IMG/VR virus record: IMGVR_UViG_3300010885_057925
Coordinates: 64,001 to 128,000 of that record
Reading direction: 5' to 3' (one strand)
Length of the DNA stretch: 64,000 nucleotides
Origin: a virus
Part shown: one piece after another, positions 39,665 through 59,916 of the stretch
Position numbering within the stretch: the stretch's first letter is position 1
How the letters are laid out: every line of letters begins with the position of its first letter
Notes under the pieces: generated by a model
What the model was told of the DNA's origin: nothing
The model's input: the letters and a program-made list of their open reading frames with translations, nothing else
Databases searched by the model: none
Program-made: the position numbers and the translations under genes

Positions 39665-39953
39665 TCTCTTCCTCTTCTTCTTGGATCGATGTTAGCTGTT
39701 TCGCTACGTAAAGTATCGTCTCTCTTGACTTCCTTATGTCTTCAACAGCGCGTTTAATCTCTGGTGAATCATAAAAGAGTGGTACTTTCAGTATCTTGGA
39801 AATTGAATTATATCTCTTATCCAAGGCGTCAAGTGATTCTTCGATCGCGTCTTGAACACGTAACATCGTAAGGCCAAGTTTGTAATTGTAATACAACGAG
39901 GCTATCAATGCTATTGTCTCTATTAAAAGAAGCACGATCATGAATATCATCAC
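39639..39953 (-). CDS. Small membrane-anchored coiled-coil protein
   Basis: N-terminal hydrophobic helix IFMIVLLLIETIALIASLYY followed by heptad-like helix. Confidence 0.7.
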   Translation of the reverse strand: MMIFMIVLLLIETIALIASLYYNYKLGLTMLRVQDAIEESLDALDKRYNSISKILKVPLFYDSPEIKRAVEDIRKSRETILYVAKQLTSIQEEEEESGSSKKDS

Positions 39954-41113
39954 TTTAAAATATCTCCGATTGTGCTCTCATAAAATTCATTGATCGCCAG
40001 CGGATTATGAGAATTAATCAAAATCTTAGATAAATCAGCGGCCCATTGTCTTGGATTTTCAGAAGAGTTCTTAAACTTTCTGACTTTCTTCTTGAAATCA
40101 GACTCTCTAACCTCGGCCCACTTTGTTCCAGCGATCCAGATATTATTGTCGACTCTGCTAGCATGTATTGGAGTCATATCGTATTCTAGCTTCACAAACT
40201 TTCCCTTGCCCATGAAGTCCATGTGGCCAGATTGCTCAGTTGCAATCACCGGTAGTCCGCTAGCTGCAGCCTCAAGAATTGGAAGACCAAATCCCTCGCC
40301 ACGAGTAGGAGCGACTAGAGCTTTAACGGTGCTGTGACGATAAAGACCAGCAATCTCAGAATTGGACATTATGCCATGAATGACGTGAACTCTCGGGAAT
40401 GGGCCACGACGAACCTCTTTCAGAGTATTTCTGAGAGCATTTTCAACTCCAGCCCAATCGAGTCTAGTTCCACGCCCGACGTTTGTCTTCACGATGATGC
40501 CTACGTCTGGATCGTTCGCGAACTCCTCACAAAGCCACTTTAGAGCAAAGAAGATATTCTTTCTATCGTTGAAAGGGTTGTTACCTGTCAACGTCCCGAC
40601 AAGAAGAAAATTGAACTTAGTCTCAAAATTAGCCTCAAATCTACAATTTTCATCCAAAATTTCTGGAATGAAGCTTTCGGGTATCACGACAATTGGAGTC
40701 GTTACGTCTCCCGTATCTCGAAGAGTCTTTTCACAAAAAGTCGATGGAACAACAACGGTATCCATCGAATTGCAGCACTTTATCCACTCTGGGTTGCATC
40801 TATCAGATTCTACTACAGCCGTCACTCCAACGTTCTTGTGAGCAAGCTCGGTAGACCACTCGTTCGGAAGTTGGATCTGAAACGAAACATCAAACTTCTC
40901 GCTGGGGTCTGCGCTTCGCTTCATGATTTCTCCTATTAATCCACCTTCTGCAGACGGATTAACGTGCCAGCTCGTAGAGCCCCATGGAAGTATTTGGACT
41001 TTGATATCATCGCTCTGATGCTTCGCCAGCAACCAACGAAATACCTGACGAGCGTGATTTCCATAACCAGACTCGCTGAGAAGTGGTCCTCTTACCAGTA
41101 TCTTCTTACTCAT
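39950..41113 (-). CDS. Glycosyltransferase, GT4 family
   Basis: SGYG N-terminal motif; PTRGEGFGLPILEAAASGLPVIAT. Start moved to ATG 41113 (ATGA overlap). Confidence 0.9.
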   Translation of the reverse strand: MSKKILVRGPLLSESGYGNHARQVFRWLLAKHQSDDIKVQILPWGSTSWHVNPSAEGGLIGEIMKRSADPSEKFDVSFQIQLPNEWSTELAHKNVGVTAVVESDRCNPEWIKCCNSMDTVVVPSTFCEKTLRDTGDVTTPIVVIPESFIPEILDENCRFEANFETKFNFLLVGTLTGNNPFNDRKNIFFALKWLCEEFANDPDVGIIVKTNVGRGTRLDWAGVENALRNTLKEVRRGPFPRVHVIHGIMSNSEIAGLYRHSTVKALVAPTRGEGFGLPILEAAASGLPVIATEQSGHMDFMGKGKFVKLEYDMTPIHASRVDNNIWIAGTKWAEVRESDFKKKVRKFKNSSENPRQWAADLSKILINSHNPLAINEFYESTIGDILK

Positions 41114-42351
41114 AACGTCACCTTCTTCCAGGCATTGTATCTTGTCTTCCAATTTTCTATCGTCTCTTTCAATGTTTCATCCCAACGATTTATGACATTG
41201 TCGTAGGAAAACTCTTCCTGCACGTAGCGACGTGCTTTCTCTCCCAACGCTTTTCTTTCATCAGGTGAAAGCCTGTAGAGCTTCTCTATCGCGTTGGCAG
41301 TAGTTTCATTCGAGACGTAATCTTCGTATATGTAAGGAACAACCTGCGATCCGACTAGCGTTCGATTCTCAATTGGAAGAGCGACCCCATTCTCAGATCC
41401 ATCACGATGATCAATCACCTGACGTGTCAATCCGCCAGTCGTTGCGGCGATAATTGGACGACCGCACTGCATAGCTTCAAGAGTCGCAAGACCGAAACCC
41501 TCTGCATACGAGATGTTGATGCATGCGTCAGATATGTTATGCAGAATGTTCATCTTCTCAAAATCAATCCGATCGGTTGAGAAAATTACGCTGTCTTGAA
41601 CTCCAAAAAACTTGACTACCTCATGAAGGTTTGGTCCCTCCTGGTCAAGAGGATCGGTGTGCATGATAAGGGACGCGTCCCGCTTTCCCTCTTGCTTGAT
41701 CTTCTTTGCAAAGATGGACCATGCCTCGATCACATCGCTGGGACGCTTTCGGCGAGCATTTCGATTGACCCAGAAAAGAACAAAGTTATCTTTCTTGGTT
41801 GGGCCAAGAATCTCAACCTTTCTAGCCAACCTCTGCTCGTCAGTTAGCGGATAGAAAATCTCTGGCGGTAGAGCGTGAGGTATGAAGTTTGACTTCTCAG
41901 GAAAATCCTGCTTGCAGATCTCATACGTAAGATACGAATGACAGTTGATCAGATCCGTAGAATCATAAAACGGAGCGTTAAAGGCAGGCTTCGGCCAATT
42001 GTCCCAGACATGCCACCAAGCGATTGGGCAAACCTGGTGGATCTCGTCTTCCATTTCAAAGAGCCATACGAAAAATCTAGGGTCAGTGAAAATGAGAATC
42101 AGATCTGGCTTCTCAGTTGCGAGCGTGACCCGAAGCATCTCTTTTGTGCCGAACCCGTCAATGGGCTTGATGATGAAATCATCATTCACTACGATAGTTC
42201 GGTAGTCAGAGTGCTTAATAGCGGCACCGAATTGCCTGAATGTCCACCCACCTTTCTTCAGCAGACCATTCACCAAGTGTCTTGTTTGCGTTCCAACTCC
42301 AGAGGTTGACAGAGCATGGTCAGACAGTATTAGAACCTTTTTCTTCTGCAA
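41110..42351 (-). CDS. Glycosyltransferase, GT4 family
   Basis: SGVG, NRNARRK and SYAEGFGLATLEAMQCGRPIIA motifs. Confidence 0.9.
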   Translation of the reverse strand: MQKKKVLILSDHALSTSGVGTQTRHLVNGLLKKGGWTFRQFGAAIKHSDYRTIVVNDDFIIKPIDGFGTKEMLRVTLATEKPDLILIFTDPRFFVWLFEMEDEIHQVCPIAWWHVWDNWPKPAFNAPFYDSTDLINCHSYLTYEICKQDFPEKSNFIPHALPPEIFYPLTDEQRLARKVEILGPTKKDNFVLFWVNRNARRKRPSDVIEAWSIFAKKIKQEGKRDASLIMHTDPLDQEGPNLHEVVKFFGVQDSVIFSTDRIDFEKMNILHNISDACINISYAEGFGLATLEAMQCGRPIIAATTGGLTRQVIDHRDGSENGVALPIENRTLVGSQVVPYIYEDYVSNETTANAIEKLYRLSPDERKALGEKARRYVQEEFSYDNVINRWDETLKETIENWKTRYNAWKKVTL

Positions 42352-42399
42352 GAAACTTTCCTCTTTCGAAAAATTAAGAAGAGAGAACCATAAGTAAAT

Positions 42400-43194
42400 T
42401 TAAGTACAGTGCTCTGTGTTGAGATAAGGGCAGTACTGGCAAGACTGTCGATTCTTAATCTTCGTTCCCTTTCTCATGCCTGCAATCGTGTTAGAAACAA
42501 GCTTGTTAGCTTTCTGCATCGCGACAGGACCGACCGAGACCGTGAAGAGCTCAACACACTTCCCGGCCTTAGCTCCCTTCTTAAGGAGCACGTAACCGCA
42601 CTTGATGTAACGAGCTCCATCGAAAAGTTCCCTGTGCTTATTCATGAGATACGACTTGTAGAGAGCAACCTGAGCCAGAGTCAGCGGGTCCTGCTTCTTC
42701 TCAACTCTCCAACCGCCTGCCCCGGCCGTCTTCCAGTCAAGAACCCAAAGATCGTAGCCGCCCTTCTCTCGTGGAACTTTGATTATGCAGTCAACGAAAC
42801 CCTTGAAGTATGCATCTCGATCTTCGATCGATTCGTAGAGCGCTTCCTCCGCAGACACCGTCTCCCAACCAGGGAAAGTCTCATCGAGCCATGCAGGAAC
42901 TTCTTCCAGCGCATTTTTTGCCCAAGTTGCCCACTTCTCAGCTTCTGGAAATCCCTTAGAGTCCCAGGCTGCAACAATATCCATGAGGCAGCGCTCGATG
43001 TCCATCACACGAGTCTTCAGGTATCCTTCACATGCTGAGTGAACTGCAGTTCCAAAATCTAAGTGCTCGCTTGGCTTGTCGAGGTTGATCTTCTTGATCT
43101 GCTGAAGGTAGTGACGGTACGGACACTCGTTCCAGCTTCTGACCTCAGAGTAAGAAACGTGAGCTTTTCCTGTCGGAAGAAGATTATCAGACAA
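42400..43194 (-). CDS. PD-(D/E)XK nuclease, Cas4/AddB-like with Fe-S cysteines
   Basis: SYS..CPY, FGTAVH, E..KGFVD..LDWKT, C-terminal CQYCPY..C; TTG at 43194 preceded by AAGGAGG. Confidence 0.85.
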   Translation of the reverse strand: MSDNLLPTGKAHVSYSEVRSWNECPYRHYLQQIKKINLDKPSEHLDFGTAVHSACEGYLKTRVMDIERCLMDIVAAWDSKGFPEAEKWATWAKNALEEVPAWLDETFPGWETVSAEEALYESIEDRDAYFKGFVDCIIKVPREKGGYDLWVLDWKTAGAGGWRVEKKQDPLTLAQVALYKSYLMNKHRELFDGARYIKCGYVLLKKGAKAGKCVELFTVSVGPVAMQKANKLVSNTIAGMRKGTKIKNRQSCQYCPYLNTEHCT

Positions 43195-44284
43195 GTTCCC
43201 TCCTTGACTTCTGCAGAGCAGATCCAACTACCTGATGCATATCGTAATACTTGTACTCAGCCAATCGACCTCCGAATAGAACGTTAGACTCAAGTTCTGC
43301 AACTTCTTTGTACTTTCGATAAATTTCAGTGTTCTTTTCATCACCGATCGGATAATACGGAGTTGCGCTACGATCCCAAGCGATTGGATACTCCTTGGTG
43401 TAGATCGTGCTCTTCAGCTTGTCCAACCGTTCTGGTGTGAAATGCTTATGTTCGGTGATTCTGGTGTAAGGGACTGATGCATCACCGTAGTTTACGATGG
43501 CATTTCCTTGAAAGTCTCCCTCTCTCTTCTCTTCCTCAAAGCGAAGAGATCGATACTCTAGATCACCGAACTTGTAATCGAAAAACTCATCAATCTTTCC
43601 AGTGTACACAACTCTCTTCGCCATCGAATTCCACTTCTCGCGATTGCTGAAGTAGTTTTCTCCCAGCGCGATTTCGCAACCATTCAACATATTGTTGAAG
43701 ATGTTTGTGTATCCTTCTTTTGGAATTCCCTGGTACGTATCGTTGAAGTAGTTATCATCGAATGTCATCCTGATGGGAAGACGTTTGATAATTGAAGCCG
43801 GCAAGTCTTTTGGATCACGCATCCACTGCTTGGTAGTGTATCCACGAATGAAAATATCGTAGATTTCAGGCCCGACTTGAGAAAGAATCCAGTCTTCTAG
43901 ATTACTTGGATTCTCGCGTGGAACTCGAACAGTCTCGAGCTTTCTCATAGCTTCGTCAGGAGTATTGACTCCCCATACCTGATGAAGCGTCATCAAATTA
44001 ATTGGGAATGAGTACATCCTGTTTCTATGCTTGACCTTGGGTCGAAGCACAAAATTGTTGAACTCGGTGAATTGATTCATAAACTTCCAAATTCTTTCAT
44101 CGGAAGTATGAAAGATGTGCGGGCCGTACTTATGAACGTCGATTCCATCACGACGCTCGCTATAGCAGTTTCCACCGATGTGCTCTCTTCTGTCGATTAG
44201 AAGAACGCTCTTACCCTTGCTTCGAGCTTCATGAGCAAATACACTGCCGAAAAGACCAGCACCAATAATGAGGTAGTCGTACAT
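43187..44284 (-). CDS. glf: UDP-galactopyranose mutase
   Basis: IIGAGLFG, HIGGNCY, HKYGPHIFHT, YFNDTYQGIP, GRLAEYKYYDMHQ. Confidence 0.97.
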   Translation of the reverse strand: MYDYLIIGAGLFGSVFAHEARSKGKSVLLIDRREHIGGNCYSERRDGIDVHKYGPHIFHTSDERIWKFMNQFTEFNNFVLRPKVKHRNRMYSFPINLMTLHQVWGVNTPDEAMRKLETVRVPRENPSNLEDWILSQVGPEIYDIFIRGYTTKQWMRDPKDLPASIIKRLPIRMTFDDNYFNDTYQGIPKEGYTNIFNNMLNGCEIALGENYFSNREKWNSMAKRVVYTGKIDEFFDYKFGDLEYRSLRFEEEKREGDFQGNAIVNYGDASVPYTRITEHKHFTPERLDKLKSTIYTKEYPIAWDRSATPYYPIGDEKNTEIYRKYKEVAELESNVLFGGRLAEYKYYDMHQVVGSALQKSRRELV

Positions 44285-44289
44285 GGCTT

Positions 44290-44318: not shown

Positions 44319-44326
44319 TCTTAATT

Positions 44327-45208
44327 CTACTTGAAGCTGTTTAGATAATCCTCAAGCTTTACCTTCGGCTCCCAACCAAGCTCATTGAAAGCTCGATTAT
44401 TGTTTGCTAGAGTCTCTCTTGTCTCACCGACTCGCTCAGAAACGTAGAGGCGATCTCCACCGATCATAGCTGCAAGATCATTTATCGAGTAATTTTTACC
44501 AGTTCCGATGTTGACCGGTCCGACCACCCACGGCTTTTCAGCTGCGATTAAATTGGCCTTGACAGCATCACTTATATGTGTGAAATCTCTTCGCTGATTT
44601 CCGTCACCCACAATTGTCATGGTATCTCCAGCAGCTTTCTGTCTCATGAAAAGACCCATAACAGGAGCGTACTCACCCTTTAGCGGCTCGCGTGGACCGT
44701 AAACATTGAAGTAGCGAAGAGAGATGGTCGAAAGCCCGTACAGCTTCGTGTAGAGCTCACAAACTTCCTCACCCTGCCACTTAGAGAGCGAATAAGGAGT
44801 TGCGCAACCCTTCGGAGCACTTTCGATAAACGGAGGCTTGGACGCGTGACCGTAGTAAGAAGACGAAGCTGAGTAGACAACGCGCTTCACACCCGCTAGA
44901 CGACTGCAATCAAGAACTCTCTGCGTCCCTAGCACGTTGACAGAGAAGCACTCTGATGGGTTGTTAACCGTTGGCTGGATTCTGGACCTAGCAGCGAGAT
45001 GGAAAACAACGTCAACACCATCGTACAAGTCCTGGTGAAGGTTGCGAATATCAGCGTCTATGTTTGTTGCAGCATCGTTCCAGTAGAACTGGTCATTTTG
45101 TGGCGCCGACTTATCATCAACGCAGATGACTTCATCACCACGAGCAATCAGAGCATCAACAACATGGGAGCCGATGAACCCAGCACCGCCAGTCACAAGA
45201 TAACGCAT
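44327..45208 (-). CDS. NAD-dependent nucleotide-sugar epimerase/dehydratase (extended SDR)
   Basis: TGGAGFIGSH, YSASSS, YSLSK (YxxxK), RYFNVYGP, RDFTH. Confidence 0.92.
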   Translation of the reverse strand: MRYLVTGGAGFIGSHVVDALIARGDEVICVDDKSAPQNDQFYWNDAATNIDADIRNLHQDLYDGVDVVFHLAARSRIQPTVNNPSECFSVNVLGTQRVLDCSRLAGVKRVVYSASSSYYGHASKPPFIESAPKGCATPYSLSKWQGEEVCELYTKLYGLSTISLRYFNVYGPREPLKGEYAPVMGLFMRQKAAGDTMTIVGDGNQRRDFTHISDAVKANLIAAEKPWVVGPVNIGTGKNYSINDLAAMIGGDRLYVSERVGETRETLANNNRAFNELGWEPKVKLEDYLNSFK

Positions 45209-46179
45209 CAAGAGCTCCTCTTGCTGACAGCGCGACCGATCTGCTTCTCCCAGTCTCTGTCGTTCGGGCTTCGAATCTCAAGATTCTTCGACCAAGCTGC
45301 TTGCATCACAGTCGGCTTGACGTCGTAATAACGAGCAACGCTCATGAGAGCGTTGATATCCTTAGGGAAGCAATGACCGCCGAAGCCACGCACATAACGA
45401 CCATCATGAGTTGGGACAGGACCTGGAACGGACCAGTGAGACTCACCCAAACGACGATCAAACTTAGCGTACTCAACAACCTTGTCGTAATCGATGTTGA
45501 GACCATCTGCGTCAAGAGCTTCACAAATCTGTGAGATCTCATTAGCAAACGATACCTTGACTGCCAGCATACAATTGGTCACGTACTTGACCATCTCGGC
45601 AGTTGTAGAGCTCGTCTTAACGATTGTAACTTTCGGGAAAGCTCGCTGGAATACGTTCTTGACAGTGTTGATATAGGGCCGTGGGCCACCCAGAACGATG
45701 CGATTCTGCTCTCGCATGTCATTCACAGCATTCGCTTCGGTCAGAAACTCTGGGTTGAAGACGACGTGGAGGCCTTTGTCGTTGAACTTCTTATTCCAGT
45801 TTTCTGTCGATCCGGGCGGAACAGTGGACTTCACCACAGCGACTCTCTCAGGAGAGTCAGAGGTGTAAGAAGAGTTAGCAATCTCTGCCAAAACCCCCTC
45901 AACAATCGAAGTATCTGCCGCTCCGTCCTCATACATCGGAGTTGGTACGCAAACAAAGAACACGCCAGAGAAACCAGAAGTTCCCTCACATTCTGTCACG
46001 AACTCTGCTACAGAGCCCGGGTAGATAACTTCGTCAGAGTTATTCCTTCGGAAGCCATTCATTCCACCGTTAGCCAGCTTTCCCGCCTTGTCATACACGA
46101 AGACTCTCTCGCCGCGTTCGGAAAATACCGTCGTGAGGCTGCCACCGACGAAACCTTGACCGATAACACCAATGCTCAT
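45208..46179 (-). CDS. ugd: UDP-glucose/GDP-mannose dehydrogenase family (short form)
   Basis: GQGFVG, CVPTP, KSTVPPG, NPEFL, AEMVKY, GFGGHCFPKD; ATG 46179 with AAGGAG SD. Confidence 0.88.
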   Translation of the reverse strand: MSIGVIGQGFVGGSLTTVFSERGERVFVYDKAGKLANGGMNGFRRNNSDEVIYPGSVAEFVTECEGTSGFSGVFFVCVPTPMYEDGAADTSIVEGVLAEIANSSYTSDSPERVAVVKSTVPPGSTENWNKKFNDKGLHVVFNPEFLTEANAVNDMREQNRIVLGGPRPYINTVKNVFQRAFPKVTIVKTSSTTAEMVKYVTNCMLAVKVSFANEISQICEALDADGLNIDYDKVVEYAKFDRRLGESHWSVPGPVPTHDGRYVRGFGGHCFPKDINALMSVARYYDVKPTVMQAAWSKNLEIRSPNDRDWEKQIGRAVSKRSS

Positions 46180-46195
46180 TTTCTCTCCTTGATTG

Positions 46196-46224
46196 ATTAT
46201 CACATAAGAGAGTTACATTTTCAA
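46196..46224 (-). promoter_or_regulatory. Sigma70-type promoter for ugd
   Basis: TTGAAA-17 nt-GATAAT with TG extension, followed by SD AAGGAG. Confidence 0.6.
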
Positions 46225-46629
46225 ATCTAAAATTGAACTGGCTATCTTTTTCTTTAGATCGGTGAGGTTGTAGTCGTGATTTCTGCTGCAGAAATAGACG
46301 GGTTTTCCGAGTTCATCGCCTGTGAATCTCTTATTGACATAATCGGAGCCAAGTATTCTGACATCGAAACTTACTCTCGCAAGCAATCTGCGAAGATCTT
46401 CTTCAGTGTTGTAATAGACGACTTCGTCAACATGCTTCAAGGCTCGAAGTATCTCGGCTCTTTCTTCCCAAGACTGAACTGGCTTACACTTACTTGGTCT
46501 ATCGATAGTTGGGTCATCCTGCAATGCTACGATCAGACTTTCGCAGATTGCTTTTGACTCCCGAAACATTCGAATGTATCCAGGGTGGATTAGGTCGAAT
46601 GACCCAGCGATTAGTCCCGATTTATACAA
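46213..46629 (-). CDS. Cytidylyltransferase, TagD/RfaE-like
   Basis: [10 protein letters not shown] (HxGH-like), [19 protein letters not shown]. Confidence 0.85.
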
Positions 46630-47594
46630 GACGACTCCAGCTGTCTGTAATCCTCTTCATACATAAGCCGGGCCAATTCTTTGAACGTAGTTCTTGGTGA
46701 CCATCCCAATTTTTCTCTTGCTTTAGAGAAATCTCCTTCGAGCCATGGAACTTCATGAGGACGCTTAAGACGATCATCTATCAAAAGATGCTTATCGACG
46801 TCAAGGCTGGCAATCTGGAAGACCTCGTCTAAGAATTCTCTGACCGTGTGAGTCTCACCTGTCGCAATGACGTAATCATCGGGCTTGTCCTGTTGAAGCA
46901 TCAACCACATCGCCTCAACGTAGTCTTTCGCGTAACCCCAGTCGCGGAGCGCGTCAAGATTGCCGAGAGCGATCTTGTCTTGGAGACCGAGCTTGATTCG
47001 TGCAGCTGCAAGCGTGATCTTGCGAGTGACAAATGTTTCACCACGACGAGGGCTCTCATGATTGAAAAGAATGCCTGAAGATGCGTGAATGCCGTAGCCC
47101 TCGCGGTAGTTGCGAGTGAGACCGTGAGCGAAGACCTTGGCGCAGGCGTACGGAGACGCTGGCATTAGACGTGTCTCCTCATTCTGAGGGTGCTCGGGAT
47201 TATCACCGTACATCTCAGACGAAGATGCTTGATAGAACCTGCAATCAGGTTGCATGGTCCTGATGCACTCAAGAAGTCGAAGAGGTCCCATCGCTACCGA
47301 GTCCACAGTTTCCTCAGGCACTTCAAACGAGACTCTAACATGCGACTGCGCCGCGAGGTTGTAGACCTCATCAAACTTCTGGTTTGCGAAGAGACGGTAG
47401 AATGCTCCAGCATCGTTCATAGAGCCGTAAACAAGCTGAAAGTTTTTGTGAGCAAGAAGATGATCGATTCTGTCAGTTGCGAGAAGAGAGGTTCTCCGCT
47501 TCATGCCAACGACTTTGTATCCCTTTTCTAGCAAAAGCTCGATGAGGTACGACCCGTCTTGGCCTGTGCATCCAGTCACAAGAGCTGTTTTCAT
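46611..47594 (-). CDS. gmd: GDP-mannose 4,6-dehydratase
   Basis: [62 protein letters not shown]. Confidence 0.97.
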
Positions 47595-49341: not shown

Positions 49342-49355
49342 GTTCTCTCTCTTTT

Positions 49356-51654: not shown

Positions 51655-51892
51655 TTGGCAACATCACGCCAACAAAGATATCCAGCAGATGCTGGACTGT
51701 CTTTATCTGATGCCACTGGATCGGTAAATCCAGAACGTTGATAGAGAACTTATGATCAACATCGATCACAATTTGCGCGTAATCGATGCTGTCAATTCCA
51801 ACTTCATCAAAAACTGTGTCAAGCTCAACTTGAATGCTCGGATTGACTCTTCGGATTGCCTCTACAATAGAATCAAAAACTTCTTCTTTCAT
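51647..51892 (-). CDS. Acyl carrier protein
   Basis: Small acidic protein with GIDSID phosphopantetheine serine motif; ATG 51892 preferred over the track start at 51940. Confidence 0.85.
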   Translation of the reverse strand: MKEEVFDSIVEAIRRVNPSIQVELDTVFDEVGIDSIDYAQIVIDVDHKFSINVLDLPIQWHQIKTVQHLLDIFVGVMLPNE

Positions 51893-51911
51893 GAGCTTAA
51901 CCTTTTCAGCA

Positions 51912-52763
51912 TTATAAATCGTGAATGCTCGAAAGTTCAATGATGCTGTCGTTCAAATGATACTGCTTGACTCTCTCGCTTGTTGACATGAATCTTTCAG
52001 TCAAACGATCTCCACGGCGAGGAGCGATAATCTCTTTTGCTCTGTCTGGATACAGATCATTTGCAACGTCTTCCATCAGACGAAGATGACCGCTGTTTAC
52101 TATGAATCGACCTGGCTCAGATCTAAGCATCGCAAAAATGATAAGTCCAGCCGACTCTTCGACCGAGATGAAGTGACGCTCGCAAGTCGGAGCAACTTTG
52201 ATAGGCTCGCTCTCTAGGACTTTGTCCCAGATCTCAAATACGTTGCCCTGCGTCTCGACGACATTAAAGAATCTTGCCACGGAACCACCGCTGTTCATGG
52301 TCATTCTCTCTGCGATCAGCTTGCTAGCTCCGTAAACGATCTCTGGGTTTGCAGACTTGCAAGTAGAAGTCAGAATCATCCTACAGCCATCCGGCTTATT
52401 GTCCAGTAAGTTCTTAGTTCCGATTGTGTTGATCGAAAGTGTCATCCAAGTCTCGTGTTCTCCGACAGGAGCATGCTTCGCTCCCGCGATATTCACGATG
52501 ATGGTTGGCTTGTAGTCGTTCAGAACTTGCTTCACTCTGTCAAAATCAGTTATGTCCATCTTGGTGTGATCACCCTCGATGTCAGTCGACAGAAAATTGA
52601 CATTATGGCGCTTGAACTTTTCTACCAGCACAGTGCCGATGCTGCCATTAGCTCCCGTGATCAGAACTCTCTCGTTCAAATTTTCTAATCTGTTCTCAAC
52701 GCTTACGAGCTGCTGAAGCTCTTTCCTGCCCAGAACTTTCTCGAGTGAATACTTGTCCATCAT
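51912..52763 (-). CDS. Nucleotide-sugar 4,6-dehydratase, CapD/PglF-like catalytic domain
   Basis: LITGANGSIG, AGAKH, STCKSANP..YGASKLIAE, RFFNV, RHFIS, RRGDRLTE. Confidence 0.8.
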   Translation of the reverse strand: MMDKYSLEKVLGRKELQQLVSVENRLENLNERVLITGANGSIGTVLVEKFKRHNVNFLSTDIEGDHTKMDITDFDRVKQVLNDYKPTIIVNIAGAKHAPVGEHETWMTLSINTIGTKNLLDNKPDGCRMILTSTCKSANPEIVYGASKLIAERMTMNSGGSVARFFNVVETQGNVFEIWDKVLESEPIKVAPTCERHFISVEESAGLIIFAMLRSEPGRFIVNSGHLRLMEDVANDLYPDRAKEIIAPRRGDRLTERFMSTSERVKQYHLNDSIIELSSIHDL

Positions 52764-52819
52764 TTCTAGAACTCTCCTTTAATTTTTCTATCGAAAGTTT
52801 TCGTTCAAAAACCGTGATC

Positions 52820-53287
52820 TCAAGTTCGATCAAACGCTCTTTTCACCATGACAATATTATCATGACAGATTCCGTGAAAATTAGTTTTTTCGTACAACTT
52901 TTTCGACCAGAAAGCTGATGTATCTGAAGGCTGGTTCACTACGCCTCCTGAGACAAAAACTTCCGGGAAAGTCCAGGGAATAGACTTGGATGTCATAGTC
53001 AACTTATCGTTCTCATGCCAGAACCAGTTTAAACCAGATTGATTCAAAAAAGAGATGCACTCTAGATTCTTTGCATGAACCCACAGCTTGCTTGACCTCT
53101 CAAGGAGAAATCTCTCATCTATTCTATTCTCAGGAAAATCATGACCTAGCTTGAGAGATCCATCGCTTAACCAAAGATCTATCTCAACGTCGAAATCAAG
53201 AGACAGAGCTAGATCTATTTGATCAGGAAGGTTCTCACGTTCTTTCAGCTTGCCTTCTAAATTTCCTCTGTGAGATATGAATATCAC
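52820..53287 (-). CDS. Glycerophosphodiester phosphodiesterase-like protein
   Basis: ISHRGN..EN..DVEIDLW..LGHD..WVHAKN. Confidence 0.75.
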   Translation of the reverse strand: MIFISHRGNLEGKLKERENLPDQIDLALSLDFDVEIDLWLSDGSLKLGHDFPENRIDERFLLERSSKLWVHAKNLECISFLNQSGLNWFWHENDKLTMTSKSIPWTFPEVFVSGGVVNQPSDTSAFWSKKLYEKTNFHGICHDNIVMVKRAFDRT

Positions 53288-53997
53288 TTTGCGATCCTGA
53301 GGTATCGCTGCAGATCTTCTGGGGTCCCTATCCCATGCATTTTATGAACGTAGAAAGGAATGACGCTCTTGCTGTCTCCTATCATTTCATTGTAGACGGG
53401 AGCAATGTAGAACTCGTTATTAGTTCTGATATTCTTTTCTATCATGTCTTTTGCAGATCTAACGAAATCGGATCCCTTTCTGTACCAGTAAATTCCGCAA
53501 GTAGCTACATCAGATATTGGATTTTTTTCAGCAACCTCTGACACAAAACCGTCATCCACTTTAACAAAAGACCACTTCGGATGAACCGCGTTAAACGTAA
53601 AAACGATTCCATCGACCGACGTCATCTTTTTTACTGTCATGAAATTTTCCCTGCTAAACTCGATTATTTGATCTGAGTTTGCGATCAAGAGGTCATCGTC
53701 GTTGTTAATAAACTCTTCTGCTAGAAGCGCCGTGCAGGCTGCACCCTCTGTAAGAGAATCTACCTGAACTATTCTGCAGTTGCCGTTAGTCACTCTCTTT
53801 AAGAGAGAATGAATTCCATCGAACTTAGCAAGATGCTCTTTTCTAACCAGAAATATGTACTCAGCGTCAAAACCTAGATTTTCAATGACAGCCTGTATCA
53901 TGGGTCTACCATCTACGTCTATCAGGGGCTTCGGAAACGTGTACCCTTCAATCGAAAACCTTGAACCCTCACCCGCCATCGGAATTAGAACTTTCAT
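53284..53997 (-). CDS. Nucleotidyltransferase / GT-A fold sugar-phosphate transferase
   Basis: IPMAGEGSRF..PKPLIDV, TEGAACT, ANSDQ, EKNPIS, NNEFYIAPVYN, GTPEDL. Confidence 0.85.
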   Translation of the reverse strand: MKVLIPMAGEGSRFSIEGYTFPKPLIDVDGRPMIQAVIENLGFDAEYIFLVRKEHLAKFDGIHSLLKRVTNGNCRIVQVDSLTEGAACTALLAEEFINNDDDLLIANSDQIIEFSRENFMTVKKMTSVDGIVFTFNAVHPKWSFVKVDDGFVSEVAEKNPISDVATCGIYWYRKGSDFVRSAKDMIEKNIRTNNEFYIAPVYNEMIGDSKSVIPFYVHKMHGIGTPEDLQRYLRIAK

Positions 53998-54622
53998 CTA
54001 TAAACTCCAAGTAATTTCTAAGATTCACATCTTCGAACCCCTTAACTGCCCAGAGGTATCTGGCAAGAGATTTCTTTGCAGATTCTATTCCCTTGTCAGA
54101 ATCTTCTACACAAAGCGTCTGCTCTGGATCTGAGTTGAGCTCTTTGATTGCGTAATCATAACAATCCGGGAACGGCTTGTTTCTTTTGACGTCTTCGTTG
54201 GTAACGATTCTGTCAAAATACTCGATTTGACCAGTCGAGTTAAGCATCTTCTCTGCAGTTTGTCTGATCGAGTTGGTCACGCAAGCAATTTTTACTTTAT
54301 TTTCTTTTAGAAATTGAAGAAGTTCAATTTTCTTTGGGTCAATCTCTGCGTTTCTTTCGATTATGTCGATCGTGTAATCTTGCTTCAGCTTCCAAATCAT
54401 TTCTGATTTTTCTCGATCTACTCCAAGAATCTCAAGCTTAACTTTGGTAGGGAGTCCGTTGAATTTTGATTCGTGATCCTCTCTTGATATCGTTACTCCA
54501 GCAACTTCGTAGAGAGCTTGATTCAGTGATTTGTAATGCCACTCACACGCATCGACCAAAACTCCATCAAGATCAAATAAAACGCAAGACACGTGCTTGC
54601 CGCTTTTTCCAAAATTTCTCAA
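53969..54622 (-). CDS. HAD-family phosphatase
   Basis: FDLDGVL, VTNS, KPFPD, EDSDKG motifs. Confidence 0.9.
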   Translation of the reverse strand: MRNFGKSGKHVSCVLFDLDGVLVDACEWHYKSLNQALYEVAGVTISREDHESKFNGLPTKVKLEILGVDREKSEMIWKLKQDYTIDIIERNAEIDPKKIELLQFLKENKVKIACVTNSIRQTAEKMLNSTGQIEYFDRIVTNEDVKRNKPFPDCYDYAIKELNSDPEQTLCVEDSDKGIESAKKSLARYLWAVKGFEDVNLRNYLEFIDESSNSDGG

Positions 54623-54663
54623 ACTTACCCCTCTTTTATCGTTAGAAGATTAGACTGTCGTTG

Positions 54664-55311
54664 CTATCTCAAAGTAAACACTTTGTCCTCGACCCATGGT
54701 TTATCAAACGTTCTTCTCAAAAGAACAGTGTAGTCGAATCTACTAACTTTTGATCTGAAACTTGACATATGGTATCGTAGCATCGTCTCAGGATGACAAG
54801 GAACTCCCGCCGCTGAGTACTCGTTTATCTTATCATAAAGAGCGCAGTAGTGATTCATATTCTCATATGACGAGAAACAAAGCATGTCAAAAAGACCGCC
54901 TCTCCAGTCTCCTCCCTGAGGTATCCAGAGAGAACTCGGATCGAATTCGTTGATCTTCAGCGGACTGCAATACTTCACGTCGAACCTAGTCTTTAGGACA
55001 ACATCGTAATCTCCTTCGATTATGTCAAAAGACTTTTTGATGTTCTTCCACATCGCAAACACTGCAGCGGGATCAGTCTCAGGCGGCTTATTGTAGAAGC
55101 AAGAGTCTGATATCTTGCTCACGTTCTGATCTTTTGAATCTATGATTGTCTTTTTTGGATTGAAAAGCTTCACTGCTTCAGCGACTCTCTCTTCTTCATA
55201 AGCATGAAAGAATATGTCGCAGTCGTTGTAATTTAGTATGTTGCTTTCTAGAGACGGATAGCATTCATCAAAATTTCTAACGTCCCCGCTCAGTATTATC
55301 GCAACTTTCAT
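54664..55311 (-). CDS. Putative glycosyltransferase-like protein
   Basis: MKVAIILSGDVR..DIFFH..YDVVLKTRFD..D..HPET pattern seen in glycan-locus proteins. Confidence 0.6.
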   Translation of the reverse strand: MKVAIILSGDVRNFDECYPSLESNILNYNDCDIFFHAYEEERVAEAVKLFNPKKTIIDSKDQNVSKISDSCFYNKPPETDPAAVFAMWKNIKKSFDIIEGDYDVVLKTRFDVKYCSPLKINEFDPSSLWIPQGGDWRGGLFDMLCFSSYENMNHYCALYDKINEYSAAGVPCHPETMLRYHMSSFRSKVSRFDYTVLLRRTFDKPWVEDKVFTLR

Positions 55312-56132
55312 AGCTTGTTCTCGAACTTAGGCATAAGATCAAAGAAAAGCTCCATGTTTTCATTAGCTTCAAACGGTCTAATGGAGTGATATTCGCTCAG
55401 CTCTCCAGATCTAACAGCTTGCATCAACTCATCGCACACTCTGATTCTGCCGATCGATCTGTCGATTCTTCTAGAACCCCATTCGTTGTGAAAGTTAGTG
55501 ACAAGTTCTATCTTAGCTCCGGGTTCATCTCTTAACTTTTTTCTAATCAAAGAGCTAGAATAAGCTTCGTCGATGCCCCAGAGACTCATACCTTCTCTAA
55601 AGTTTGGAAGATTGACTCTCCAATCGTAGATCTTATGAAGCTCATCAGACCAGTTTTCGTTGATTTCGTGAATTGACTTGAATTGAGAACCAAAACCCAC
55701 GTGATGTGAGGATGGAAAATCAGCCCCAGGATGATTATATCCGTCGGAGAAACCTACAACGTATTTTCCATCTCTCAAAAACGCCTTGATCATTTTAAAG
55801 AATCTATCACCCAAAGGTATCTGATCTATTCCCGAGATCATACATCTGTCATTTTCAAATCTAGAAGCACCGTAGTACGCGCCCCAAGTGCACGTCCAAT
55901 CTCTCTGCTCAATCAATATGTCTGGAGATCTTTCTAAAAGAAAGATTTCTCCATGGTCGTCCGATAGCTTCTTTAGTTTTCTGAGCTCGTCGAACTCTTC
56001 TTGATTACCAGAGAAAAATAGCGTTGGGACAGTGTTAAACTTCTCATGATATACTTTCGATACAAAATTCCAGAAGCCTAAGTAATCAGAATTGTTTGTC
56101 AACGAAAAGATGACTCTATCAACTATTCTCAT
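55308..56132 (-). CDS. Hypothetical protein, possible GT-A glycosyltransferase
   Basis: Y..FW..VSK, GIDQIPL, WGIDE, RRIDR, H..RP; glycan cluster context. Confidence 0.5.
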   Translation of the reverse strand: MRIVDRVIFSLTNNSDYLGFWNFVSKVYHEKFNTVPTLFFSGNQEEFDELRKLKKLSDDHGEIFLLERSPDILIEQRDWTCTWGAYYGASRFENDRCMISGIDQIPLGDRFFKMIKAFLRDGKYVVGFSDGYNHPGADFPSSHHVGFGSQFKSIHEINENWSDELHKIYDWRVNLPNFREGMSLWGIDEAYSSSLIRKKLRDEPGAKIELVTNFHNEWGSRRIDRSIGRIRVCDELMQAVRSGELSEYHSIRPFEANENMELFFDLMPKFENKL

Positions 56133-56814
56133 TTTTATCTCGCAAAGAATGGATTCTTCTCATCATCTCTGGATTCATATAATGAAAAGTTATCTTTTCG
56201 TCGGTTCCGAATGAATCGATATTTCCAGTGCAAAACTTTTCTGTGTGAATGAACCTGCACTCTCCTGAGTTTCTGAACCAGAATCCTATCGATATGTCGC
56301 TGTTATAAGCTGTTGGGAAATCTTTGGTATCTAGAAGGTATTTCTTGATGGCAGTAAAACACTCTCTAGTCATCACAAACCCTGCTCCTCCGCTGGGATA
56401 TGTCACCGGTAAGCTGCAGTCTCTACCTCTCAAACTTTGAAGGGGCATTCCTTGCTCAAGAGCATGATTCTCAGAGTAGTCATAGAAAACGTGGCCAAGA
56501 CAAGCTTTTTCATTGGGAGAAATTTTAAGCGACTTGATCTCTGCTTTTAACGAGCTAATATCAACGTAGGTGTCATCATCGCTGATCATAATGAAATCAA
56601 AGTCATCAAAATTCTCTAGAGACATCACGAAATAAGCTAACTTAAAAGGAACATACACGTAACCGGTAGGAAGAGTAGAGAAAGAAACCATATCGTTTCC
56701 TTCGCTGTCACCCACGAAGATGTATGCATCAGAATTTTTAGCGTAAGTTTCTCTAATCGCATCTTGAAGTGATCTGTTCTTATCACATGTTATGATTGCA
56801 TTTAGAATCTTCAA
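56119..56814 (-). CDS. Fringe/GT31-like glycosyltransferase
   Basis: DDDTYV, YPSGGAGFVM, SDISIGFW, ITFHY hallmark motifs. Confidence 0.8.
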   Translation of the reverse strand: MKILNAIITCDKNRSLQDAIRETYAKNSDAYIFVGDSEGNDMVSFSTLPTGYVYVPFKLAYFVMSLENFDDFDFIMISDDDTYVDISSLKAEIKSLKISPNEKACLGHVFYDYSENHALEQGMPLQSLRGRDCSLPVTYPSGGAGFVMTRECFTAIKKYLLDTKDFPTAYNSDISIGFWFRNSGECRFIHTEKFCTGNIDSFGTDEKITFHYMNPEMMRRIHSLRDKNENS

Positions 56815-57683
56815 ATTGCACGTCCTTCCGTCAAGATGTATAAGAGATGCTTAGATCTTACATCATAGCTATGATAATTTTCAGACCTTGCGCGACCAAG
56901 ATGAGCTATTTTCTCTCTTTCAGCATCGTTTCTGGTGAAATGATCTATTAGAGCCATGAGCTCGTCTGCGTTATGATAGACGACAATCTCCTCATTAATC
57001 TTGAAGAGTCTTTCGATATTAGGCGTGTAATTTGTGAGCAGCATCGCTCCAGAACCTGTAGCCTCAAAAGTTCTGAAGTTCACGTCGTCAGCGATGTTTA
57101 TGTTGAAAGCTATCTTGTAGCTTGACAGAGCTCGCACCATATCGTTTCCAATCACGAATATGTCGCGCTTCAAATTAAACTTTGACGATATCAGATTAAG
57201 CCAATTCTCTCTGTTGCCGATGAGAGAGCCGCAAAACCCAACGTCAACGTTTCTTTCAACGCTAGAGTCAGGCTTTATCAAATCAGAAGGATACCCATTC
57301 GGAAACCAGACAGCTGAGCTGACCAAACCTCTGAAGTGATCGATGTGCTGTATGTTGGACATCAAGAGAATGTCGAACTTGTGCTTGAGGCAATGAGCTT
57401 GATGATTCTGAAGAGAGCAATGAGAATCGATGCTCCAGAACAATTTCTTTCCCTTGAACTTTGAGATGTCTGGATGCCACCCAGAGTCATAATTCTCAAG
57501 GCTTAGCAGGGCATCACAATCTCTGGATATCTCGTCGAAAGGGACGGAAAAATTATTGTAATTCAACCCCCAAACGACAGCTTCATGACCGGCTCGCTCA
57601 ATTCCTCGCTTAAGGCACAGAGCCTCTCTGAACTCTCTATTTCCTTCGTTTCTTCCGCGTTCCTGTATCAGTAAGATCTTCAT
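56811..57683 (-). CDS. CgeB-like glycosyltransferase (GT-B)
   Basis: WSIDSH, DVGFCGS..R, YKIAFN..DVNFRTFEATGSGAMLLT, HSYDVR. Confidence 0.8.
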   Translation of the reverse strand: MKILLIQERGRNEGNREFREALCLKRGIERAGHEAVVWGLNYNNFSVPFDEISRDCDALLSLENYDSGWHPDISKFKGKKLFWSIDSHCSLQNHQAHCLKHKFDILLMSNIQHIDHFRGLVSSAVWFPNGYPSDLIKPDSSVERNVDVGFCGSLIGNRENWLNLISSKFNLKRDIFVIGNDMVRALSSYKIAFNINIADDVNFRTFEATGSGAMLLTNYTPNIERLFKINEEIVVYHNADELMALIDHFTRNDAEREKIAHLGRARSENYHSYDVRSKHLLYILTEGRAI

Positions 57684-58330
57684 ATGACTGCTCTCAACGC
57701 TGCTTTTTGCTCTTCAACAGCCACATCATTTTCATCGAATGCTAGACCCACAAACTCATCGCTGACGCGTTTGGTCGGAAATTGAATCTTTTGAAAGAAC
57801 TCATCATGAACAATCGAGAACTGAGCGACCTTTGGATAGATAATTTCGCGCAAGAAATTTTGATCAACTTGCCAAAAATCTCCCTTCACGTACTCACGAA
57901 TTAGATCGCTCATGTTACTGAGAAGCGGAGCTCTAGCTCCCCACATTCCTCCTAAAATCTCTGTAGCGTGGTGAGGGTGATCACGCATGATATGAAACAT
58001 CGCGCTGCTTCCGAGCCACTGCTTCACTGCAGCTACTTCACGAGCAGTTATCCTGCTATCGCAGTCTCGACTGATCATCACGTCAACGTCAGGGTCTGAG
58101 GCTGCCTCGAATCTCCAGAACATGCCCGTCCAGTCGCCGGGCTTCTTCATATCGATTACGTGTGCTCCACGATCATGAAGACCGCTGATCGTTTCAGAAG
58201 GAGTATTAGTACCTACATAAAAGCGGGCCTGCCATCCAGGATATAGTTCACTCACAAGCTCAGCGTTCCTAAGAGCTCCGATGTTATACTTTGGGTTATC
58301 ACCCCATAAAGAGTAAGAAACTACTCTCAT
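57680..58330 (-). CDS. Conserved GT-A-like protein
   Basis: SYSLWG..KY..GA..N, MFWRF, SRDCDSR (DxD), FHIMRDHPHH, ILGGMWG, DQNFL. Confidence 0.65.
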   Translation of the reverse strand: MRVVSYSLWGDNPKYNIGALRNAELVSELYPGWQARFYVGTNTPSETISGLHDRGAHVIDMKKPGDWTGMFWRFEAASDPDVDVMISRDCDSRITAREVAAVKQWLGSSAMFHIMRDHPHHATEILGGMWGARAPLLSNMSDLIREYVKGDFWQVDQNFLREIIYPKVAQFSIVHDEFFQKIQFPTKRVSDEFVGLAFDENDVAVEEQKAALRAVI

Positions 58331-59916
58331 CGATTCAACCCGAACATGTGCTGAGCTCTTTGAGCGAACATCATGTGATCTCTCATCACGTGCTGATTGT
58401 TGACTGCGTACGTCATGTCGATACCCTCCTTCGTATTATCAGGGTGCTCATGGCGGATGATTACATCGTCCACATATGTTTGCTTTCCAAAAGCGAAAGC
58501 CACCTGCATAAACTCGTTATCACAGTAGAACGAGACGTAATCGGGGTGGTAGAGATAGCCGAAACGATCGTAGTATCTCTTTCCTAAAACGATCAGAGTG
58601 TTGAGCTTCTGCTTCTGATAACCATCGGAGAACCAGATGACACCATCTAGATCAGGGTAGTTCACCTTCATCTGCCGAATTATCTCGAGATCGTAACCCT
58701 CTCTTTCTGGAATCATATCGTCAGATGCTAGCAGGCAGATATCAAAATCTCGACCAGACATGTCAGCGTTGACAGCTTGAATCTTTGTCTTACTGTTGCC
58801 GTAGCAGACCTCAACGTTTTCGTACGACTCGAATCTTTTTCTGACTTCCTCGTTGTTCATCGTAGAATCGTCAAGATCACATGATACTAAGAACTTGACA
58901 TTCTTAGATCTGCTAAGATTTCTGTAGCTCTCAAGAACTGAGAAAAATTTCTCTGGACGACCGCGGGTTGGAAACTTCACCAGAAGATTGGGCTCTAAGT
59001 TTTCACGACCCGATATGATATCCAGAGTCCTCTGCCAGAAAACTGCTCTTCTATTGTGGAGCCACCTGAGAATGTTGAGAGGTTCGTACTCAAGCCACGT
59101 CTCTCCAACGTGCTGAACATTCTCGTTAGATATCACCTGACATCCCAATAACTTAGACTCAGTTACCATTCTATTAGAAACATCAGCTCCGCGTGGTAGA
59201 CAGACATAACCTTCAGAGTTAGACATAGCTTCTAAAACTTGATCTGGGCTCATGCTCTTGATCAAGCTGAAGATCTTGTCATTTTCCAGTAACCACTTCT
59301 TAGCGTCATCAGTTCCCTTTATCCACGAGTCGGAGTCAAGAGTCAGCCACCCAGACTTTTTTCTATTTGGAAGAGACTGGATAAGAGGAATAATCTTTTT
59401 GAAGAACTCGTCTCCAAATACCGCTGAGAGAACAGAGCAGTTTGCATTTTTCAAGCTTGGGAATCTATCGAAGTACCTTTGCATATGCTTCTGAGAGCAA
59501 AACCAAACTTGCCGAGCATTGAGATAGAACTGCTCAATTAGCTTGCCCCAGGGCTCAGCCTCGCAGCGGCACTCCTCACCGCCCTCTGCCAGATGTCTCT
59601 CAACCGATCTCCATCTACAGAACTTATAGTCATGCTCAAACACGGAGTAGCTAATTTTAGATAACGAAAAAGCGCTTATAAGAGTTGGATTCAATTGAGA
59701 AAAATTACCAAAGACCCAGTGACAGTTTGGTTGACTCTCTACCATCTCTCTAGTCAGATGAGCTGAGTGAACAGTGGCGAACGGAACAGGAGCTGAGCTA
59801 TGCAGAGCGTCCATTGACAGCTCAGCCCCTCCGACCAGATCTGACAGAAAAAAATCTTGAACAAAGATGATCTTAAACTCAGGCTTCTTTTGCTCTGAAA
59901 ATGGACTGTTGAACAT
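58327..59916 (-). CDS. Two-domain glycosyltransferase (GT-B-like N-terminus + GT2-like C-terminus)
   Basis: GGAELS..HDYKFC..KG..LP..D..RMVTESKLLGC; then KFPTRGRP..ASDDM..Y.SFYCDNEF..IIRHEH. Confidence 0.75.
   Translation of the reverse strand: MFNSPFSEQKKPEFKIIFVQDFFLSDLVGGAELSMDALHSSAPVPFATVHSAHLTREMVESQPNCHWVFGNFSQLNPTLISAFSLSKISYSVFEHDYKFCRWRSVERHLAEGGEECRCEAEPWGKLIEQFYLNARQVWFCSQKHMQRYFDRFPSLKNANCSVLSAVFGDEFFKKIIPLIQSLPNRKKSGWLTLDSDSWIKGTDDAKKWLLENDKIFSLIKSMSPDQVLEAMSNSEGYVCLPRGADVSNRMVTESKLLGCQVISNENVQHVGETWLEYEPLNILRWLHNRRAVFWQRTLDIISGRENLEPNLLVKFPTRGRPEKFFSVLESYRNLSRSKNVKFLVSCDLDDSTMNNEEVRKRFESYENVEVCYGNSKTKIQAVNADMSGRDFDICLLASDDMIPEREGYDLEIIRQMKVNYPDLDGVIWFSDGYQKQKLNTLIVLGKRYYDRFGYLYHPDYVSFYCDNEFMQVAFAFGKQTYVDDVIIRHEHPDNTKEGIDMTYAVNNQHVMRDHMMFAQRAQHMFGLNR

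Follow-up and report, generated by a model that had tools for sequence, protein, structure and literature searches.

The DNA analysed here, referred to below as the window, is a 64,000-nucleotide stretch corresponding to bases 64001-128000 of the IMG/VR record IMGVR_UViG_3300010885_057925, a single linear viral contig of 171,517 bp from an uncultured freshwater T4-like phage. It carries a 20-kb cluster (39950-59916) of genes for nucleotide-sugar synthesis and glycosyltransferases (GTs), which would constitute a self-contained, lipid-carrier-independent glycosylation island working in the cytoplasm of the infected cell on a conserved phage acceptor, most likely virion proteins (probability roughly 0.45). 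Judging from the comparison of related loci, the architecture of this island is that of a vertically inherited two-GT core combined with exchangeable supply and extension cassettes. The new element is the lineage core itself, a nuclease followed by two GTs (nuclease-GT4b-GT4a) that is syntenic with the baseplate genes, with variable sugar cassettes upstream of it; comparable large sugar clusters have been known in cyanomyoviruses since P-SSM2, and virion glycosylation is already known from some mycobacteriophages.

The cluster consists of 24 contiguous open reading frames (ORFs), all on the minus strand and abutting or overlapping, with a largest internal gap of 56 nt (Table 1). Family assignments were based on Pfam and NCBIfam profiles, and folds on AlphaFold2 (AF2) models compared by VIA Z score and Foldseek. 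For 20 of the 24 ORFs, a role in nucleotide-sugar synthesis or glycosyl transfer was supported by family or fold. A preliminary description of this DNA, made from the sequence alone, had listed about 22 contiguous genes providing GDP-fucose, UDP-galactofuranose, a uronic acid and an amino sugar, together with 5-8 glycosyltransferases, all lying between fibre genes and the baseplate module. The back-to-back ORFs, the profile matches and the flanking genes agree with this outline, with seven GT domains confirmed and two further ORFs standing as leads only. One correction to it is a PD-(D/E)XK nuclease gene in the interior of the cluster (42400-43227).

The strongest indication of what is constant in this system came from 35 related IMG/VR loci, in which the gene order nuclease-GT4b-GT4a-tm104-p239-p120-p484-gp25-gp6 was invariant (nuclease in place in 33 of the 35, GT4a syntenic in all 35). 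GT4b was 61-96% identical in these loci, versus 40-93% for gp6, and was the better conserved of the two wherever a locus had both. Three cultured relatives with complete genomes also carry homologous GT4 pairs. These are Flavobacterium phage immuto, Microcystis phage Mel-JY01 and Rhodothermus phage RM378, where the counterparts of GT4b are 33.5%, 32.1% and 26.7% identical to it, respectively; GT4a is about 30% identical to its equivalents in immuto and Mel-JY01. The nuclease-GT4b-GT4a order is shared by immuto and Mel-JY01, with GuaB interposed between the nuclease and the GT4 pair in the latter, and RM378 keeps the GT4 pair. In the present clade and in immuto the nuclease lies inside the sugar cluster and directly upstream of the pair. 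The gp6-like protein has 32.8% and 33.6% identity to its distant phage counterparts, about equal to the divergence of GT4b, which thus behaves as a vertically inherited core gene across hosts of three phyla. The catalytic EX7E motif is intact in GT4b (residues 284-292) and GT4a (286-294), and for this reason a GtfA/GtfB-like pair with an inactive partner was rejected. Likewise, a match to PF20706 (“GT4 in conflict systems”, 34 bits) was attributed to generic GT4 similarity, the source paper of that family dealing with bacterial death-domain systems.

Upstream of the nuclease the picture is the opposite, with Glf, Gmd/Fcl, dehydrogenase, epimerase and aminotransferase genes coming and going across the 35 loci. 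In the closest relative, which is 81-97% identical at both ends of the cluster, the whole middle portion (48520-55311, lower in GC than the rest of the cluster) is replaced. The substituting segment (locus L003, 15867-21229) encodes a class-I methyltransferase, two ORFs of no assigned function, a DAO-type FAD oxidoreductase, a short-chain epimerase-like protein, a xylose-isomerase-like TIM barrel and a GT92/GT2_4-like transferase, a gene content that implies a putative different sugar chemistry built on the same scaffold. When the 20-kb region was searched by megablast against 50,697 phage records, zero matches were returned.

By homology, the cassettes present in the window would furnish GDP-L-fucose through Gmd and Fcl, UDP-galactofuranose through Glf, and a uronic acid and its epimer through the nucleoside diphosphate (NDP)-sugar dehydrogenase and the GalE-like epimerase. 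The nucleotidylyltransferase, PseB-like dehydratase, DegT aminotransferase, LpxA-like acyltransferase, acyl carrier protein (ACP), AMP-ligase and FabG would together produce an NDP-4-amino-4,6-dideoxyhexose, probably N-acylated from phage-made acyl-ACP, and the small nucleotidyltransferase (46213..46629) is possibly the source of a CDP- or ADP-linked unit. The DegT, LpxA/VioB-like, ACP and FabG-like genes at 48520-51940 match a viosamine-type N-acyl amino-dideoxyhexose gene set, as found in the flagellin viosamine island of Pseudomonas syringae, where an aminotransferase, a hexapeptide acyltransferase, an ACP and a 3-oxoacyl-ACP reductase lead to an N-acylated 4-amino-4,6-dideoxyhexose (PMC3927599).

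Some of these enzymes depart from their families. For Fcl the best model, NF047922, gave 251 bits, under its 500-bit cut-off, and the AMP-binding enzyme scored just below the PF00501 cut-off, with several acyl-CoA ligase models matching its C-terminal part. This ligase (298 aa), which is devoid of about 170 N-terminal residues of the profile, and the DegT protein (273 aa) are far shorter than usual family members. The NDP-sugar dehydrogenase spans positions 1-295 of the 413 in TIGR03026, without the C-terminal nucleotide-sugar-binding domain, and the gene that follows begins 4 nt before the dehydrogenase stop. Its counterpart in the closest relative is equally short and 94% identical, so the short enzyme is probably functional.

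The other pillar of the proposed island is the absence of membrane and export machinery. With membrane segments scored by the 19-residue Kyte-Doolittle mean (KD19), the highest value among the cluster ORFs was 1.48 and no membrane-spanning segment was detected in any of them; across the 171.5-kb contig hydropathy revealed no polytopic ORF, with at most three hydrophobic segments per ORF. The claim of the preliminary description that none of the cluster products is polytopic thus withstood the membrane check. Its further claim, that flippase, polymerase, ABC or Gtr components and a priming phosphoglycosyltransferase are all missing from the cluster, was upheld by hydropathy and hidden Markov models (HMMs). 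CheckV estimates the completeness of the contig at 51%, meaning that the genome may extend beyond it, although the longest contigs carrying a near-identical GT4b measure 151-220 kb, so that the 171.5-kb contig may be nearer to completeness than this figure suggests. Given the possible incompleteness, the searches for export genes outside the cluster were repeated on the three complete genomes. The Bac_transf phosphoglycosyltransferase (PF02397) and Wzx (PF01943), searched in six frames in the contig, had no match there or in immuto, Mel-JY01 and RM378 (the WecA type of priming enzyme not being included in the HMM search), and Wzy_C (PF04932) had no match in the three relatives. As for a Gtr cassette (GtrA, GtrB and a polytopic Gtr), the KD19 of every cluster ORF stays below 1.5, a result of hydropathy, no GtrA HMM having been run. 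The region as a whole is not membrane-free, however, since the cluster, itself devoid of membrane proteins, is abutted by a 104-aa single-pass membrane ORF (tm104, 39639-39953).

No other membrane protein is encoded near the cluster. In this small protein a single transmembrane helix at the N-terminus is followed by a body of coiled-coil character and a tail that is acidic and rich in Ser, and its gene is invariably found between GT4a and the baseplate-side genes in the 35 related loci.

The preliminary description had gone further and deduced a cytoplasmic acceptor, either virion protein or DNA, from the lack of membrane proteins. This step is not strict. Soluble GTs are the norm in O-antigen synthesis, and priming and export could be provided by the host. 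One trait of O-antigen and capsule loci, nucleotide-sugar synthesis genes and several soluble GTs joined in one operon, is present in the cluster. It can be envisaged that the phage sugars and soluble GTs modify undecaprenyl-phosphate-linked intermediates, with the host machinery exporting the remodelled O-antigen or capsule, which could block superinfection or prevent the progeny from adsorbing to debris. Remodelling of the host envelope is the standing interpretation for the large sugar clusters of lytic cyanomyoviruses such as P-SSM2, with 24 “LPS genes” (lipopolysaccharide; PMC1079782), and S-SCSM2R, with 22 cell-wall genes (PMC12801897). It also agrees with the related fucose-centred cluster of S-SRM01, which adjoins psbA and hli genes and not structural genes, with the nearest solved relatives of GT4b, some of which use lipids or small molecules as acceptors, with the cluster being a separate unit without the late-type motif described below, and with the single-pass membrane ORF adjoining the GT4 pair. 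We nevertheless consider it unlikely. The GT4 pair is conserved, at baseplate-like divergence, across phages of Bacteroidota, Rhodothermota and Cyanobacteria, whose lipid-linked acceptors should differ, and the retention of the core across three phyla thus favours an acceptor provided by the phage over host-specific lipid-linked intermediates. In addition, no priming or export gene was found in the three complete relatives, whereas the known serotype-converting phages encode the membrane components that they need. As a rule, moreover, the Wzy and Wzx of a host act specifically on the repeat unit native to that host.

So many sugar pathways and GT domains imply a multi-sugar glycan, in keeping with the complex chain initially proposed. 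Seven GT domains are accounted for by the two GT4 enzymes, the Glyco_trans_1_2 protein, the GT31/Fringe-like protein, a 529-aa ORF (two domains) and a 216-aa ORF (one). As PDB sequence searches with the 529-, 216- and 274-aa ORFs gave no useful match, fold comparison was required. The AF2 model of the 529-aa protein (pLDDT 89.9) displays a compact GT-B domain (residues 12-305; VIA Z 19.2 to 6kih) fused to a GT2-like GT-A domain (residues 308-529; VIA Z 17.8 to the fucosyltransferase WrtF, 9omh), and its N-terminal domain recurs in hundreds of phage-like proteins, either standalone (about 303 aa) or fused to GT2. The 216-aa protein was modelled (pLDDT 92.7) as a small GT-A enzyme in which D89-x-D91 is invariant. 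It is tied between many GT-A families (VIA Z 10.5-13.5), GtrB being only one among those tied, and its best Foldseek match, the PBCV-1 capsid GT 2p6w (TM 0.54; VIA Z 10.7), represents fold-level likeness only. This family counts 2376 homologues, the best 120 of which share 56-96% identity, with members from marine samples, a 735-kb megaphage record and Synechococcus phage S-SRM01. Some of the homologues are labelled “protein O-GlcNAc transferase” by JGI and one GenBank record reads “SPINDLY family”, designations that were rejected because GT41 enzymes have a GT-B fold and the model is that of a DxD GT-A. Finally, the 274-aa ORF had no Pfam, NCBIfam or PDB sequence match, and its nearest named Atlas clusters (GT8/Nucleotid_trans, at 0.93) serve as a lead only. 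No cluster GT was assigned to the VioT, Fgt or Maf families by Pfam or NCBIfam, no direct comparison with these proteins having been made.

DNA was the second acceptor contemplated initially. Under this hypothesis the GTs would glycosylate a modified base and the PD-(D/E)XK nuclease would degrade unmodified DNA, which would be consistent with the nuclease being fixed beside the GT4 pair in the lineage. Precedent exists in that LPS-related phage GTs add mono- to trisaccharides to 5-hydroxymethylcytosine (5hmC), with gene clusters that can be near structural genes (Pyle et al., 10.1101/2023.12.21.572611). However, the list of reported DNA glycans consists of hexose, N-acetylhexosamine and heptose on 5hmC, with genes located beside a methylase and a dioxygenase, and does not include fucose, galactofuranose, uronic acid or N-acyl amino sugars (10.1101/2023.12.21.572611). 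The check for hydroxymethyl-pyrimidine genes, run on the 171.5-kb and possibly incomplete contig, revealed no thymidylate-synthase-type hydroxymethylase (PF00303), and there was also no C5-methylase (PF00145), TET/JBP protein (PF12851), DpdA or QueC match. Indirect evidence comes from nucleoside analysis of immuto_2-6A DNA by liquid chromatography with ultraviolet and mass-spectrometric detection, in which only dA, dC, dT and fdPreQ1 were found (10.1101/2023.04.13.536721); the homologous nuclease-GT4-GT4 cluster was located in its genus-mate immuto_3-5A. The lack of a glycosylated nucleoside in a relative makes DNA an unlikely acceptor, and glycosylation of DNA is therefore regarded as very improbable.

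With DNA a poor candidate, phage proteins are left as the likely acceptor, most obviously those of the virion. In the proposed mechanism, the core GT4 pair would act on a conserved phage-encoded acceptor, most likely baseplate or fibre proteins, the seven to nine soluble GT domains would join the supplied sugars into a heteroglycan, and the variable cassettes would diversify its outer part, as in flagellin islands and chlorovirus capsid glycans. In its most specific form, with the pair priming a baseplate or fibre protein in the cytoplasm and the cassettes building strain-specific heteroglycans of fucose, galactofuranose, a uronic acid and an N-acyl amino sugar, the proposal can be put forward only tentatively.

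Several observations weigh against a virion acceptor. In immuto, Mel-JY01 and RM378 the core GT pair is found beside a nuclease in a region of replication and early genes, GT4 enzymes often use lipid-linked or small-molecule acceptors, as the PDB matches illustrate, and the contig in which export genes were sought may be only part of the genome (CheckV 51%). A terminator-like hairpin precedes the cluster, which has no copy of the ATANTTAR motif found before nearby structural genes, so that co-expression with virion genes would be conjectural. No mucin-like or C-terminal Ser/Thr tract was present in any ORF of the contig (maximum S+T fraction 0.53 per 30 residues). A hydrophobic-[ST]G[ST] motif is four- to sixfold enriched over shuffled sequences in the fibre and baseplate-periphery proteins (window 9034-34763 and 60004-63524), but it fails as a glycosylation sequon, as the [S/T]-G-[S/T] enrichment is equal with and without a downstream GT-B gene (2.51-fold versus 2.35-fold) and is seen also in Mel-JY01 (locus L082, 21857-37927). 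The motif probably corresponds to a structural strand-turn element of fibres. Lastly, no glycan has been seen on any virion of the lineage.

Some of these observations lend weight to a different soluble acceptor. The product might then be an unattached oligosaccharide, a metabolite carrying sugars, or a glycosylated protein from outside the virion, be it an early phage protein or a host factor, and it might serve to put a host defence out of action or to tie up nucleotide sugars. Sucrose-phosphate synthase, BshA and trehalose synthases are among the GT4 relatives, the early or replication location of the GT4 pair in distant relatives would fit, and the [ST]G[ST] and S/T-tract tests found no acceptor signature in virion proteins. 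Still, at least five sugar pathways and 7-9 GT domains appear excessive for a simple metabolite, and the exchange of entire cassettes seen between close relatives is what characterises glycans that are exposed and under selection. Such an acceptor is judged rather improbable.

The surroundings of the cluster provide a weaker positional signal for a virion acceptor. On the upstream side lie S/T/G-rich fibre genes (60004-63524 and beyond), and on the downstream side the order is tm104, three unassigned genes (p239, p120 and p484), the gp25-like gene and the gp6-like gene. A C-terminal fibre module of about 65 aa (residues ~788-855 of the 855-aa protein) is common to the 303-aa neighbour and to 79 viral loci, and in 18 of 51 loci sharing it a GT-B gene resembling the N-terminal domain of the 529-aa protein is located 94-5358 bp downstream on the same strand. 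The fibre paralogues at 60004-62571, 62613-63524 and 63537 onward (minus strand) end in the same module, with fibre bodies otherwise unrelated across the 79 contigs.

Regarding transcription, a hairpin at 59964-59985 divides the last fibre gene from the cluster. The ATANTTAR motif occurs before several structural genes on the minus strand (62593-62600, 63533-63540, 39639-39646 and 22158-22165), being placed 10-30 nt 5' of structural genes in the window and elsewhere in the contig, and never inside the cluster. It may be the late promoter of the phage, and the island looks like a unit of its own between two structural units. Within the window the motif occurs nine times, eight of them on the coding strand, against 9.2 expected occurrences, and is not enriched overall; an argument from late timing is therefore weak, and the absence of the motif from the cluster is a weak hint.

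Among known systems, the cyanomyoviruses P-SSM2, S-SCSM1, S-SCSM2R and S-SRM01 offer the closest likeness, being lytic aquatic myoviruses with 20-odd NDP-sugar epimerase, dehydratase and GT genes of unproven function (PMC1079782, PMC12801897). The S-SRM01 cluster even includes homologues of the 216-aa GT (43% identity), Gmd (52%) and Fcl (35%). In contrast to theirs, which are found among auxiliary metabolic genes and read as host-surface modification, the island described here is placed between fibre and baseplate genes, is anchored by the nuclease-GT4-GT4 core and has Glf as well as an ACP-dependent branch for an acyl amino sugar. The searches that found no export genes covered the contig, immuto, Mel-JY01 and RM378, not the cyanomyoviruses. 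Phage immuto shares the nuclease, GT4b, GT4a and a genome free of Wzx, Bac_transf and Wzy_C matches, and its core is followed by a GT2, WecE aminotransferases, a methyltransferase, a PglB-like acyltransferase, an epimerase and further GTs. Its cluster, however, comes after the DNA polymerase, GroES/EL and lysis genes and not beside the baseplate, has a different sugar set and has been annotated only, not studied as a glycosylation system, the DNA modification of this phage being fdPreQ1. A literature search turned up no paper on Mel-JY01.

The flagellin islands of P. syringae (viosamine) and Pseudomonas aeruginosa PAK resemble the proposed system in performing cytoplasmic, lipid-carrier-independent protein O-glycosylation with strain-variable gene content; they differ in that here there is no flagellin, no recognisable VioT, Fgt or Maf, an AMP-ligase in place of KAS III, and many more sugar pathways and GTs. 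Mycobacteriophages and PBCV-1 likewise employ virus-encoded soluble GTs, their virion proteins being glycosylated without host endoplasmic reticulum or lipid carrier. PBCV-1 also encodes GMD and fucose synthase. Mycobacteriophages Che8 and Corndog are described as bearing capsid and tail-tube glycans on Ser/Thr-rich C-terminal extensions and as relying on 2-4-gene systems (summarised in PMC12619734); no such S/T-rich tails are found here. DNA glycosylation clusters (the T4 alpha/beta-GT and the methyltransferase, 5mYOX and GT sets of Pyle et al.) have in common with the island soluble phage GTs without membrane partners, sometimes near structural genes, but here no hydroxymethyl- or hydroxy-base enzyme was found and the sugars are of a different kind.

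Table 1. Features of the glycosylation cluster and its flanks (window coordinates), with the evidence for each assignment.
Feature	Position	Strand	Evidence
Bifunctional GT, 529 aa, GT-B + GT2-like GT-A	58327..59916	-	AF2 fold, VIA, phrog_14945
GT-A glycosyltransferase, 216 aa, widespread phage family	57680..58330	-	AF2 fold, DxD
Glyco_trans_1_2 GT (GT-B C-terminal type)	56811..57683	-	PF13524, 96.5 bits
GT31/Fringe-like GT-A	56119..56814	-	PF01762 30.9 bits, PF02434 24.5 bits
274-aa ORF, possible GT8/GT6-like GT-A (lead only)	55308..56132	-	Atlas clusters
DUF7796 protein, 215 aa	54664..55311	-	PF25072 30.8 bits over 50 residues
HAD-IA hydrolase, beta-phosphoglucomutase-like (sugar-phosphate mutase/phosphatase)	53969..54622	-	PF13419 124 bits, TIGR02009 96.5 bits
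Sugar-1-phosphate nucleotidylyltransferase	53284..53997	-	PF00483 32.9 bits; rmlA_long, Arch_glmU ~47 bits
155-aa ORF	52820..53287	-	no Pfam/NCBIfam family match
PseB/CapD-like NDP-hexose 4,6-dehydratase	51912..52763	-	PF02719 105.9 bits, TIGR03589 65 bits
Acyl carrier protein (ACP)	51647..51940	-	PF00550 21.5 bits, NF009104 27.5 bits
Short AMP-binding enzyme, 298 aa, candidate acyl-ACP ligase	50758..51654	-	PF00501 27.7 bits (cut-off 29.9)
FabG-like 3-oxoacyl-ACP reductase	50084..50758	-	TIGR01830 139.6 bits, PF13561 132.6 bits
LpxA-like hexapeptide acyl-ACP-dependent sugar acyltransferase	49356..50087	-	NF003657 175 bits; NeuD/PglB/VioB 92 bits
DegT/WecE/PseC-type sugar aminotransferase, 273 aa	48520..49341	-	PF01041 246 bits, NF008687 166 bits
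GDP-L-fucose synthase (Fcl)	47591..48532	-	NF047922 251 bits, PF01370 172 bits
GDP-mannose 4,6-dehydratase (Gmd)	46611..47594	-	PF16363 429 bits
Small cytidylyl/adenylyltransferase, RfaE domain II/TagD-like	46213..46629	-	TIGR02199 70.5 bits, TIGR01518 52.3 bits
NDP-sugar 6-dehydrogenase (uronic acid branch)	45208..46203	-	TIGR03026 202.6 bits (cut-off 189.8)
GalE-like NDP-sugar 4-epimerase	44327..45211	-	PF01370 186 bits, TIGR01179 140 bits
UDP-galactopyranose mutase (Glf)	43187..44284	-	PF03275 263 bits
PD-(D/E)XK nuclease	42400..43227	-	PF12705 90.6 bits
GT4b, retaining GT4	41110..42351	-	PF00534 58 bits
GT4a, second GT4 of core pair	39950..41152	-	PF13692 43 bits
tm104, 104-aa single-pass membrane protein	39639..39953	-	KD19 2.70, residues 1-24
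G+C-rich terminator-like hairpin, T runs on both strands	59964..59985	.	between fibre gene and first cluster gene
855-aa S/T/G-rich fibre-like protein	60004..62571	-	S 11%, T 14%, G 14%
gp6-like baseplate wedge gene	34763..36601	-	phrog_219/phrog_43 assign gp6-/gp25-like pair
gp25-like baseplate wedge gene	36602..37084	-	phrog_219/phrog_43 assign gp6-/gp25-like pair

Ever since cyanomyovirus genomes first appeared in 2005, it has been asked what lytic aquatic phages glycosylate with their large sugar clusters. The lineage described here narrows this question, as it combines a conserved two-enzyme core with exchangeable cassettes, has no export genes in the complete genomes and is unlikely to glycosylate its DNA, and its cultured members immuto and Mel-JY01 make the acceptor directly findable. 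If the proposed island does act on phage proteins as suggested, these phages would possess a variable virion “serotype” generated by a fully phage-encoded, carrier-independent pathway, a counterpart of chlorovirus capsid glycosylation and of the flagellin islands. Should virions be the target, complex glycans built by the phage would add a new dimension to host range, stability and recognition in environmental phages.

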